This document shows positions 61,109 to 64,000 of a stretch of 64,000 nucleotides of DNA, in pieces; positions within the stretch are counted from its first letter, which is position 1, and each line of letters starts with the position of its first letter. Location of the stretch: the NCBI GenBank assembly GCA_965208125.1, contig OZ242320.1, forward strand, positions 2,752,001 through 2,816,000. The letters run 5' to 3'. The notes under the pieces were generated by a model. The model did no database searches, had not been told where the DNA came from, and was given only the letters and a program-made list of their open reading frames with translations. This DNA is from Candidatus Latescibacterota bacterium (GTDB lineage: Bacteria; Latescibacterota; UBA2968). The position numbers and the translations under genes are program-made.

Positions 61109-61996
61109 ATGAATCCCTGGGATAATTTACGCACGGTAATTGAGGAACCAATCGTTTCTTTCGGCGAAATAGAAATAACGCCAGCTATTTTGCTGACGGC
61201 TACGCTGATTATCCTTATTGCGTATGGTATATCGCGGTTGTTGCAGCGGATGTTGCGGCGTGGCGTATTTGAACGGCTACGCTTAAACGAGGGTTCGCAG
61301 TCAGCTATATGTCGCCTATTGCACATTGTTATTATGTGCATCGGCGTATTTATCGCCATAGAATATACCGGGATTAATCTGACGACATTGGCTGCGGTCA
61401 GTGCGGTATTGCTGGTGGGGATTGGTCTGGGGTTGCAAACTATTACCCACAATTTTATCAGCGGACTCATTATGTTATTTGAGCGCCCCGTGCAGGAGGG
61501 AGATTTTGTGGAGGTGGGCGGCGTGCAAGGTAGTGTGCAGGCGGTCAATGCATATAGCACGAAAGTCGAGACCCTGGATAATGTGACGATTATTGTGCCC
61601 AATTCAAAATTTCTATCTGAAAATGTCACAAACTGGAGCTTTCAAGAGTCAAAAGTGCGTATTCATGTGTCTGTGGGGGTGTCCTACGGTTCCGATGTGG
61701 AACTGGTCGCGAAGACGTTGTTGGAGGTGGGACGGGCGCATCCAGAGGTTTTGTCCAATCCCGAGCCGCAGATGCAGTTTCTGGGCTTTGGCGATAGTTC
61801 GCTGAATTTTGATTTGCTGGTGTGGATTGAGGATCCGACCCGTCAGTATTTTGTGATTAGCGATTTGAATTTTGCAATCGTCCAGGCATTTCGAGAGCGG
61901 GATATCGAGATTCCATTTCCGCAGCGGGATTTACACGTGCGAAGTGCCGTGCCCATGCATTTGCCGACATCATCTGAAAATGAGCGGGAAGAATAA
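61109..61996 (+). CDS. Small-conductance mechanosensitive channel (MscS family)
   Basis: GIGLGLQ..NFISG..LFERP..GD, IIVPNS, NWS, VGVSYGSD, FGDSSL, IEIPFPQRD. Confidence 0.95.
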   Translation: MNPWDNLRTVIEEPIVSFGEIEITPAILLTATLIILIAYGISRLLQRMLRRGVFERLRLNEGSQSAICRLLHIVIMCIGVFIAIEYTGINLTTLAAVSAVLLVGIGLGLQTITHNFISGLIMLFERPVQEGDFVEVGGVQGSVQAVNAYSTKVETLDNVTIIVPNSKFLSENVTNWSFQESKVRIHVSVGVSYGSDVELVAKTLLEVGRAHPEVLSNPEPQMQFLGFGDSSLNFDLLVWIEDPTRQYFVISDLNFAIVQAFRERDIEIPFPQRDLHVRSAVPMHLPTSSENEREE

Positions 61997-63258
61997 TGTC
62001 ATTAGATAGACGACCTGTTGCCGGTGCATTGATGGTGGGATTTGCAGCGAGTTTTTTGTTGTGTGGTTATGAGTTTGTGCGGAGTGTATCCACGTCGTTG
62101 TTCATCGGGGCGTATGGGGCGCACAATTTGCCTTTTGTTATGACGCTGACGCCTCTGGGTACGTTTGGTATGGTTTGGATGTATGGGGTGTTGTTGTCGC
62201 GATTTGGGTCGCGGCAGACTTTGTTTTTGACGTCGGTGCTTTCGGGTGGGGGTATTCTGGCGTGTTATGGGGGGATTTTATCTGGTTTTCATCCAGCGAT
62301 CGGGGTGTTATATGTGCTGCGCGAAGCGTATATTGTGCTGATTATTGAGCAATACTGGTCGTTTATCAATAGCGTCTTGCGCGATGATCAGGGGCGAAAG
62401 TACAATGGTCCGATCTGTGGGATTGCATCGGTGGGTGCGATTTGTGGAGGTTTGATTGTAGGGCAAACGGCGAAGGTGATAGGCAGTGAACATCTGTTGA
62501 TTTTTGCAGGGTTATCGCTTTTGCCAGCAGCGGTTCTGGCGTGGTGGGCTTATGGTTTAGGGGGTGTGCCGGTTCAGGAGCCGGAAAAGCGGGGCAAGCT
62601 GGCATTGGGTTTGTTTCGGGATATTCCGACTTTGCGCTATCTCGCAGGTTTGATTTTTGTGACGCAGATGGTGTCGGCGGTGCTGGATCTGCGGTTCAGT
62701 GGGCTGGTGGAAACGGCTTTGCCGATGCAGGACGAACGCACTGCGTATCTTGGGCATTTTTATGCGTTGTTGAATGCATGTGCATTTGTGTTTCAATTTG
62801 GCGTTGCGCCCTTGTTGCTGCATTTTGTGTCGTTGCGAACCGCACATCTCGGTATTCCGGTGGTTCATCTGATAACGTGTGGGGTGTTGTTGGCATATCC
62901 GACTCTGACTACTGGTGCGTTGGCTTATCTGGTGTTTAAGACGCTGGATTATTCGGTATTTCGGGCGGCAAAAGAGTTGCTCTATATTCCGCTTTCGTTC
63001 GATGCGAGGTACCGGGCAAAAGAAGTGATCGATGCTTTTGGTTATCGCGCGTCAAAGGGGATGACTTCGGGGTTGATCGCTCTGGCGGGGACCATTTCTT
63101 ACAGGGTTTTCAATATTGGACGGTTGCCGGGATCAGTATATCCGCTTGTCGCTTTGGGCGCGCTGGGTGTATGGAGTTGGATCGCGTGGGCAATTACAAG
63201 ATCGGAGGATGATAGGGGCCGGCGACTACGGGTTTCAGAGGAAGTTGCTGATTTTTAG
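61996..63258 (+). CDS. NTT/TLC (Npt1/Npt2-like) nucleotide-transporter-family MFS carrier
   Basis: YEFVRS, EQYWSF, K..DYSVFRAAKELLYIPL..RYRAKEVIDAFGYR. Confidence 0.75.
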   Translation: MSLDRRPVAGALMVGFAASFLLCGYEFVRSVSTSLFIGAYGAHNLPFVMTLTPLGTFGMVWMYGVLLSRFGSRQTLFLTSVLSGGGILACYGGILSGFHPAIGVLYVLREAYIVLIIEQYWSFINSVLRDDQGRKYNGPICGIASVGAICGGLIVGQTAKVIGSEHLLIFAGLSLLPAAVLAWWAYGLGGVPVQEPEKRGKLALGLFRDIPTLRYLAGLIFVTQMVSAVLDLRFSGLVETALPMQDERTAYLGHFYALLNACAFVFQFGVAPLLLHFVSLRTAHLGIPVVHLITCGVLLAYPTLTTGALAYLVFKTLDYSVFRAAKELLYIPLSFDARYRAKEVIDAFGYRASKGMTSGLIALAGTISYRVFNIGRLPGSVYPLVALGALGVWSWIAWAITRSEDDRGRRLRVSEEVADF

Positions 63259-63266
63259 ATGAATGC

Positions 63267-63295
63267 TTGACACAAAATACCAAAACCTCTATTTT
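63267..63295 (+). promoter_or_regulatory. sigma70 promoter of the ileS leader
   Basis: TTGACA-N17-TATTTT. Confidence 0.7.
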
Positions 63296-63325
63296 TAATC
63301 GCGCTGATAGGAAAAGGATAAAAAT

Positions 63326-63463
63326 ATGAACACAACCCGTCAAACATCCCCACAACTGAGAAAGGGTCCTGCCCAGGTGACAGGTTATCTGACACCGGGC
63401 AGTGCCATTGGGGTTATACGTATATATGCCGCGGAGATGCCTGTGGGGTGTTGTTTGTCTTAA
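63326..63463 (+). CDS. Putative ileS leader peptide (45 aa; Ile codons ATT, ATA, ATA clustered near the 3' end)
   Basis: SD AAAGGA; MNTTRQTSPQLRKGPAQVTGYLTPGSAIGVIRIYAAEMPVGCCLS*; overlaps the antiterminator arm. Confidence 0.65.
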   Translation: MNTTRQTSPQLRKGPAQVTGYLTPGSAIGVIRIYAAEMPVGCCLS

Positions 63464-63486
63464 GCTATATACTTTTTGTATGACAC

Positions 63487-63518
63487 ACCGCCAGAGGCGT
63501 TTGCCGTGGCGGTTTTTT
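63487..63518 (+). terminator. Conditional (attenuator) terminator upstream of ileS
   Basis: ACCGCCA-gaGGC-gttt-GCC-g-TGGCGGT followed by T5; mutually exclusive with the 63428-63451 pairing. Confidence 0.8.
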
Positions 63519-63562
63519 GTTGTACGCAGGGATGTTCTTTGAACGACTTCAAGGAGTTTTTA

Positions 63563-64000
63563 ATGTTTAAAAAAGTAGATACAAATGTGAATTTTCCCCA
63601 AGAGGAAGAAAAGGTGCTCGCTTTTTGGGATGAGATCAGGGCATTTGAAAAATCGCTCGAGATCAGAAAGAATAACGATGAATACGTTTTTTACGATGGG
63701 CCGCCTTTTGCGACGGGTCTGCCGCATTACGGACATTTGCTGGCCGGGACGATCAAAGATGTGATCCCGCGCTATCAAACTATGAATGGCAAATACGTAG
63801 ATCGCGTCTTTGGATGGGACTGTCACGGCTTGCCCGTAGAATACGAGCTTAGCCAAGAATTGGGCCTGAATAGCAAAAGCGAGATTGAAGAGTACGGGAT
63901 TGCGGAATACAATGAGGCCTGTCGGGGTATTGTTTTGCGCTATACTGCCGAATGGCGACAATTTGTCAAACGCATTGGGCGCTGGGTCGATTTTGAGAAT
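63563..64000 (+). CDS. ileS: Isoleucine--tRNA ligase, type 2 (partial, runs off window)
   Basis: Manual translation: [57 protein letters not shown]; SD AAGGAG. Confidence 0.96.

Follow-up and report, generated by a model that had tools for sequence, protein, structure and literature searches.

We analysed a 64,000-nucleotide (nt) stretch of a Candidatus Latescibacterota genome (contig OZ242320.1, positions 2,752,001 to 2,816,000; hereafter the window), in which 296 bases at 63267-63562 lie between a gene for a 420-aa membrane protein (61996-63258) and the ATG of ileS at 63563. These 296 bases hold all parts of a leader that is very probably a ribosome-mediated leader-peptide transcription attenuator, one that adjusts ileS transcription to how much charged tRNA-Ile is available; its function we infer from the sequence and its relatives. 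A previous sequence-only reading of the window had proposed a leader-peptide attenuator sensing Ile-tRNA, and this proposal is supported by a conserved frame with conserved Ile codons, by retention of the antiterminator and terminator, and by the lack of a T-box match. The promoter, the Shine-Dalgarno (SD) sequence, the 45-codon upstream open reading frame (uORF) and the Ile codons that it listed can be read directly from the sequence, and all of its coordinates were correct within a few bases. The parts of the leader are as follows.

63267-63295, + strand: sigma-70-type promoter, with −35 TTGACA at 63267-63272, a 17-nt spacer and −10 TATTTT at 63290-63295 (10 of 12 consensus matches); the transcript would be expected to start near 63302.

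63314-63318, + strand: SD sequence AAGGA of the leader ORF, 7 nt 5′ of the ATG at 63326.

63326-63463, + strand: leader ORF, 45 codons plus TAA at 63461.

63326-63354, + strand: weakly supported candidate ‘segment 1’, which can pair with 63436-63458 in the untranslated leader.

63365-63406, + strand: inner hairpin P1, stable, 16 pairs, within the leader ORF.

63407-63424, + strand: regulatory window with the only Ile codons of the ORF, ATT 63407 (codon 28), ATA 63416 (codon 31) and ATA 63422 (codon 33).

63428-63455, + strand: antiterminator 5′ strand (‘segment 2’) of the minimum-energy fold, within the leader ORF.

63482-63510, + strand: antiterminator 3′ strand, overlapping both terminator arms.

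63487-63518, + strand: intrinsic terminator, with a stem at 63487-63513 (7 + 3 pairs, −16.9 kcal/mol) and a U-tract (six U) to 63518.

63551-64000, + strand: ileS SD sequence AAGGAG (63551-63556) and start (ATG 63563); the gene extends beyond the window.

Conservation of the leader was followed in an alignment (A2) of 24 leaders from three genera. The scan for ORF starts covered 21 of these, and the three leaders of genus g9 were read by eye. An ATG-started ORF was present in 21/21 scanned leaders, being 45 codons long in 20 and 42 codons long in L022, and an AAGGA- or TGGA-type SD sequence preceded the ATG in all 21, with weaker versions in L019 and L022. From P1 to the stop codon the frame was free of insertions and deletions in 24/24 leaders, and the stop occupied the same codon position in every one of them (TAA in 20, TGA in 4). 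The sole change in N-terminal length, found in genus g4, amounts to 9 nt, i.e. three codons. The first Ile site was kept in 24/24 leaders (ATT in 23, ATC in one), the second in 22/24 (always ATA, with ATG in the other two) and the third in 20/24, so that the uORF and Ile codons, whose conservation the sequence-only reading had named as a check on its proposal, are kept throughout the alignment. Codons between and after the Ile sites change non-synonymously (G/E/W/I, V/I/S/R/G and R/C/L), and the stretch between P1 and the stop holds two to four Ile codons per leader.

The minimum-energy fold of 63300-63530 consisted of P1 plus a helix between 63428-63455 and 63482-63510 (−79.4 kcal/mol, z = −2.71), and 3 of 200 shuffled sequences folded as stably. 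The antiterminator of about 23 bp proposed between 63428-63451 and 63485-63510 is contained in this helix (23-26 bp), and the inner hairpin placed at 63369-63402 came out slightly wider, at 63365-63406. Folding also recovered the terminator proposed at 63487-63518, pairing 63487-63493 with 63507-63513 and 63496-63498 with 63503-63505, followed by the U-tract. A simple consensus terminator scan did not list this site, because its rule allows loops of 3-8 only and the stem has an internal loop; the scan listed only a weak site at 63429-63446.

Pairing is retained across the 24 leaders. For the antiterminator and P1 together, 94.9% of 1000 cells were paired, compared to 35-58% in slid controls, and four of 42 pairs changed on both sides (9 cells). 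For the antiterminator helix alone the values were 93.2% of cells and three of 26 pairs. The covariation score was not reached by any of 500 shuffles, a lenient control that related sequences can pass without structure. The best single case of covariation is the pair 63434-63504, which is G-C in 16 leaders, A-U in five and G-U in two; its 3′ base still fits the terminator partner, as G-C in 17 and G-U in seven. The terminator itself was paired in 99.6% of 232 cells and hardly varied.

P1 was paired in 97.7% of cells, and 12 of its 16 pairs were invariant in the 24 sequences of three genera. One pair went from U-A to C-G in two sequences, with one C·A intermediate. We take P1, which lies outside the fold competition, to be a candidate RNA-polymerase pause or synchronising hairpin. 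The P1 loop was also considered as a mimic of an anticodon loop, and this idea was rejected as the loop letters vary between genomes. That P1 is far more conserved than the remainder of the leader would also suit a structured RNA bound by a protein, e.g. IleRS itself in the manner of Escherichia coli ThrRS on its own leader, or by a small ligand, with P1 as the binding site and the Ile frame incidental; moreover, genes for RNA-binding proteins are often attenuated, as noted in a passage of Naville and Gautheret (PMC2965389). Several observations make such an RNA very unlikely. The varying loop speaks against anticodon mimicry, no Rfam family matches, and a non-coding element would need none of the features that are kept here, namely the SD sequence, the start, the frame, a stop that holds its position through a TAA/TGA switch, and the Ile codons. 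In addition, three other leaders in the genome, described below, carry codons cognate to their own downstream genes.

To examine how the Ile codons are placed relative to a stalled ribosome, folding was restricted to RNA lying 3′ of it: the 12 nt after the first base of the A-site codon were masked, and the fold extended through the last base of the terminator stem. These folds replaced equilibrium folds that permitted pairing across the bound ribosome, which were inconsistent among relatives and sterically doubtful. With the A site at the first Ile codon the antiterminator was favoured in 17/21 leaders, at the second in 19/21 and at the third in 14/21. Once the A site was at 63431 or later, the stop codon included, the terminator formed in 21/21. 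The three g9 leaders gave the antiterminator in 3/3 at the first Ile codon and in 1/3 at the second. Folding under ribosome-footprint constraints, another check named in advance, thereby yielded an antiterminator when the ribosome stood at either of the first two Ile codons and a terminator after it had passed beyond them. The order of conservation of the three sites loosely follows this predicted effectiveness, the least conserved site being the least effective.

On the attenuator reading, stalling, its timing and the regulatory outcome would unfold as follows. Transcription would begin at about 63302, and a ribosome loading at the SD sequence and ATG (63314/63326) would unwind P1, a hairpin at which the polymerase may pause, and meet the Ile codons directly 3′ of it. 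When Ile-tRNA is scarce, the ribosome would stall with 63407 or 63416 in the A site and its leading edge would end before 63428, leaving 63428-63455 free to pair with 63482-63510 as the latter emerges. The antiterminator would sequester both terminator arms, and RNA polymerase would continue into ileS. When Ile-tRNA is plentiful, the ribosome would proceed through 63428-63455 to the stop at 63461, occupying or unwinding the antiterminator strand; the free hairpin at 63487-63513 and the U-tract would then form the terminator, ending transcription at about 63518.

The genome was scanned for an SD sequence and ATG-started short ORF followed by a terminator and a gene, and the regions upstream of 22 synthetase genes were inspected. 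Three further leaders with cognate codons were found, preceding a non-discriminating aspS, a second trpS and trpE.

G000:C1:835221-835459 (L131 1522-1760), − strand: aspS leader attenuator, 29-codon ORF with the run N-N-N-D-D-N-N.

G000:C1:172301-172719 (L130 1002-1420), − strand: tandem Trp attenuators before the second trpS-like gene (trpS2), two leader ORFs, each with a terminator.

G000:C1:418345-418528 (L132), − strand: trpE leader, 34 codons, with many Trp, Tyr and Phe codons (two W, four consecutive Y).

In the aspS leader the ORF is followed by a strand able to pair with the terminator and then by the terminator itself (−20.4 kcal/mol), 28 nt before a gene for a non-discriminating aspartate-tRNA(Asn) ligase (NF003483, 501.6 bits against a cut-off of 353). 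Its Asn/Asp run (five Asn, two Asp) was kept in 19 of the 22 loci examined; these came from four genera and showed synonymous exchanges of AAT/AAC and GAC/GAT. The first trpS2 leader has a 36-codon ORF with WW..W followed by a terminator; in the second, the WWW codons of the ORF are able to pair with a CCACCACC further downstream, and another terminator follows. The two leaders are conserved throughout the genus and also outside it, and their promoter has the form TTGACA-17-TATTTT, the same as that of the ileS leader. A terminator of −19.4 kcal/mol ends the trpE leader 12 nt before trpE (TIGR00564, 602 bits). The scan gave no such leader for the other synthetase genes among the 22, and none with Ile, Val or Leu codons before biosynthetic operons, although cases can be missed by a scan that needs an ATG, an SD sequence, a strong terminator and a nearby ORF. 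The presence of the same leader design elsewhere in the genome, each time with cognate codons, strengthens the attenuator reading of the ileS leader.

The trpS-like gene behind the tandem leaders (G000:C1:171554-172300, − strand; L130 255-1001) encodes only 248 aa and matches TrpRS profiles over its first ~190 residues. This short gene may be a truncated paralogue or may result from a frameshift or an assembly error; the genome also has a full-length trpS, at about 4400935.

The sequence-only reading had further assumed a classical 1:2 helix, in which 63341-63354 would mask the antiterminator strand. An alternative pairing of 63341-63354 with 63442-63453 was seen in a co-transcriptional prefix fold, and in such folds the 1:2 helix took two registers, 63343-63354 or 63326-63348, with 63436-63458. 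Across the leaders 88.3% of its cells were paired, and four of 19 pairs changed on both sides. The duplex energies (−17.6 to −24.0 kcal/mol) showed no excess over those obtained with shuffled segment 1 (means of −14.6 to −20.6 kcal/mol; mean z = −0.94, 24 leaders), and this part of the earlier proposal, being no better than chance, is retained as a weak candidate only. The layout is more aptly given as a hairpin followed by the Ile codons, the antiterminator strand, the stop and the terminator. Without a 1:2 helix, the device would work by a ribosome that either spares or overruns the antiterminator strand.

The failure of the 1:2 element in the shuffle control is one of four points that would suit a uORF that is translated and acts otherwise, through constitutive damping of ileS transcription, through translational coupling or reinitiation, or as a small functional peptide. 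The others are that 45 codons is long for a leader peptide, that the Ile codons are few and non-consecutive, and that the spacer between the terminator and ileS, from 33 to >300 nt among relatives, could hold extra promoters. We consider these modes of action improbable, to about the same degree as a protein- or ligand-binding P1: outside its RNA-constrained parts the peptide varies freely while the Ile sites stay, the Ile codons are placed precisely such that a ribosome stalled on them spares the antiterminator strand, and the sister leaders show the same logic with Asn/Asp and Trp.

A divergent T-box riboswitch, binding uncharged tRNA-Ile directly, would be the familiar alternative. According to a passage of PMC1262725, T-boxes commonly control ileS in Firmicutes and Actinobacteria, and the genome studied here does use one T-box. 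An Rfam cmscan of 62500-64000 at E ≤ 10 gave no T-box and four unrelated weak hits (E = 0.93-9.4), and 20 related ileS loci had no Rfam match at the gathering score. The same model is clearly able to find a T-box in this genome, as RF00230 scored 102.1 bits (gathering score 93) upstream of pheS at G000:C1:857054-857305 (− strand), the only T-box of the genome. As far as a covariance model can tell, the leader was rightly described as not a T-box, and the chance that it is a divergent one appears negligible.

Within the family, the leader accompanies ileS in three genera. IleS was present in 41/41 relatives. The leader was carried by 21 of 30 fetched ileS loci and, in a DNA search, by 24 of 31 genomes of the family: 19/20 in genus g1 in addition to the genome of the window, 1/1 in g4 and 3/3 in g9, as compared to 0/1 in g5, 0/3 in g3 and 0/2 in g2. 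At the fetched loci it was not found at seven loci of family f2 or at one locus of g3. Where present, it is always directly 5′ of ileS. The promoter hexamers and their spacing are kept in g1, g4 and g9, and in g9 the upstream neighbour gene differs. Since leader and ileS stay together in g9 despite the different upstream gene, the terminator is not simply the end of that gene. The genome holds no paralogous copy of the leader, and a P1-derived pattern matched 19 stretches in a species-genome collection, all in metagenome-assembled genomes (MAGs) of Latescibacterota/Latescibacteria. Among the 80 nearest metagenome ileS loci (56-73% identity), a crude scan revealed no convincing Ile leader; terminator-like hairpins lay upstream in 19 of them.

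Metatranscriptome data bear on the same region. Nineteen RNA runs were listed, none containing half of the query words, and the contigs of four were compared. RNA-library contigs of relatives (88-99% likeness; coral and sponge metagenomes by their run labels) cover the leader, and one of 1494 nt extends from 63274 through the leader and a 90-nt variant spacer into ileS. These contigs are weakly compatible with read-through transcripts, as contigs reveal neither ends, nor strand, nor transcription; gaps and breaks near 63303, 63436 and 63518 carry no evidential weight.

Several points weigh against an attenuator at ileS. Three scattered Ile codons among 45 would be unremarkable in one sequence alone. 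The stall folds favoured the terminator even with the ribosome at the first Ile codon in L009, L016, L019 and L022, and with the ribosome at the second in L204 and L206; in leaders more distant from that of the window the two folds are close in energy, and the thermodynamic switch between them is less clear-cut. In the window, the untranslated full leader is predicted to have the antiterminator as its minimum-energy fold, such that termination by default would need the 1:2 pairing that the shuffle control did not support. Covariation is thin (the four both-sided pairs of 42), given how closely related the sequences are. P1, being nearly invariant, is conserved well beyond what pausing alone would demand. 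In the same genus, one genome, G019 (L017), retains ileS and lacks the whole promoter-leader-terminator unit through a clean deletion, extending from just past the upstream stop codon to the ileS SD sequence; we regard it as a natural unregulated variant. Finally, termination at 63518, translation of the uORF and the response to Ile are predictions from sequence, the RNA data being assembled metatranscriptome contigs only.

The choice of Ile codons is biased. Of the 68 Ile codons that lie between P1 and the stop in the 24 leaders, 43 are ATA, compared to about 16% in the long ORFs of the genome (1853 ORFs, a rough set with some spurious frames), and regulatory sites 2 and 3 are nearly always this rare codon. 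The genome has one gene for tRNA-Ile(GAU), three for tRNA(CAU), none for tRNA-Ile(UAU), as well as tilS (187 bits; cut-off 93.6). It is conceivable, but rather unlikely, that the attenuator responds specifically to the minor tRNA-Ile2, which depends on lysidine, instead of to the general Ile supply. If so, IleRS output would track how well the isoacceptor most difficult to keep charged is aminoacylated and, at one remove, its modification by TilS. Specific sensing of lysidine-modified tRNA-Ile2 or of IleRS inhibitors, as also proposed in the sequence-only reading, is speculation. The conserved rare ATA codons offer a testable case for the theory of codon choice and attenuator sensitivity, as outlined in part of PMC1183508.

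The regulated gene encodes an IleRS of 1039 aa (TIGR00392, 988 bits against a cut-off of 621). The protein resembles the MupA/MupB (type 2) kind and scores below the cut-offs of those models. A genome search showed that the leader-bearing gene is the sole ileS of the genome. Over its N-terminal 146 residues, IleRS shares 69-73% identity with genes on metagenome contigs of varied sources (loci L050-L063) and only 53-57% with the ileS products of sister genera g2 and g3 and of family f2. To judge by sequence, ileS and its leader may have been acquired or replaced in an ancestor of g1, g4 and g9.

Other features of the region and of ileS loci elsewhere were also recorded. The polytopic membrane protein encoded upstream (61996-63258, + strand) resembles NTP/NDP exchange transporters only faintly (TIGR00769, E = 2.8e-5; 23 bits, with the cut-off at 387). 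From the terminator to the ileS SD sequence there is a spacer (63519-63550) of 33 nt here and of ~90 to >300 nt in many relatives (L002-L021), and the extra sequence is G- or C-rich and repetitive, resembling inserted small repeats. At two unrelated ileS loci on metagenome contigs (L097 and L104), a terminator-like hairpin is preceded by a short ORF with Ile or Val codons; these ORFs may be independent ileS leader peptides.

If the attenuator reading holds, classical ribosome-mediated attenuation would extend to the sole, essential IleRS gene of an uncultured phylum, and the ileS device would belong to a group of leaders with cognate codons found across the family (ileS, non-discriminating aspS and the second trpS), beside the single pheS T-box. 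For the annotation of MAGs, it would follow that the 45-codon ORF is not a usual protein gene and that the hairpin is not an end-of-operon terminator. The leader is of interest for its clean comparative evidence, for its ATA bias and because one genome holds both a T-box and several leader peptides for synthetase genes. A literature search, with subscription journals outside its scope, found no described mechanism of an ileS leader-peptide attenuator and nothing on Latescibacterota.

The E. coli pheST attenuator, with its pheM leader peptide, is the classical leader-peptide attenuator of an aminoacyl-tRNA synthetase operon. It is cited as a gamma-proteobacterial example in a section of PMC1262725. 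Like pheST, the ileS leader places a short uORF with synthetase-cognate codons, then a mutually exclusive antiterminator and terminator, upstream of a synthetase gene. It differs in using Ile instead of Phe, in its much longer ORF (45 codons) with a large hairpin, in its two to four non-adjacent codons and in its occurrence in Latescibacterota, and it has neither a sequence relation to pheST nor a match to any Rfam family, those of leader-peptide attenuators included.

The trp, thr and ilvGMEDA operons of E. coli and Salmonella are controlled by leader attenuators. The attenuator model and the theory by which codon choice sets its sensitivity are treated in part of PMC1183508. Common to these operons and the ileS leader are a race between ribosome and polymerase, regulatory codons just 5′ of the antiterminator strand, a possible pause hairpin and an intrinsic terminator. 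In contrast to these systems, the Ile codons follow a self-contained hairpin instead of lying inside ‘segment 1’, a competing 1:2 helix is unsupported, and the regulated gene encodes a synthetase and is not a biosynthetic operon.

The idea of a leader peptide before ileS has a precedent in Caulobacter crescentus, where an ‘ileS leader CDS’, CCNA_03934, is named and used as a negative control in a passage of PMC4117421 that mentions a trpS leader as well. There, too, ileS is preceded by a small translated ORF with a leader annotation, and the gene has no T-box in that organism. The two bacteria belong to different phyla, and the passage names the Caulobacter leader without stating its mechanism, codons or structure.

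T-boxes lie upstream of ileS in Firmicutes, with translational variants in Actinobacteria, according to the portion of PMC1262725 that treats them. These T-boxes and the leader described here share the regulated gene and the signal, tRNA-Ile charging. A T-box contacts the tRNA directly without a ribosome, whereas the ileS leader, which has no match to the T-box model, would read charging through translation. HisS is described as switching between a T-box and a leader peptide in a passage of PMC2965389. The single genome analysed here mixes a T-box, at pheS, with probable leader-peptide attenuators, at ileS, the non-discriminating aspS and trpS2, and would be a compact natural illustration of two gauges of tRNA charging substituting for one another.

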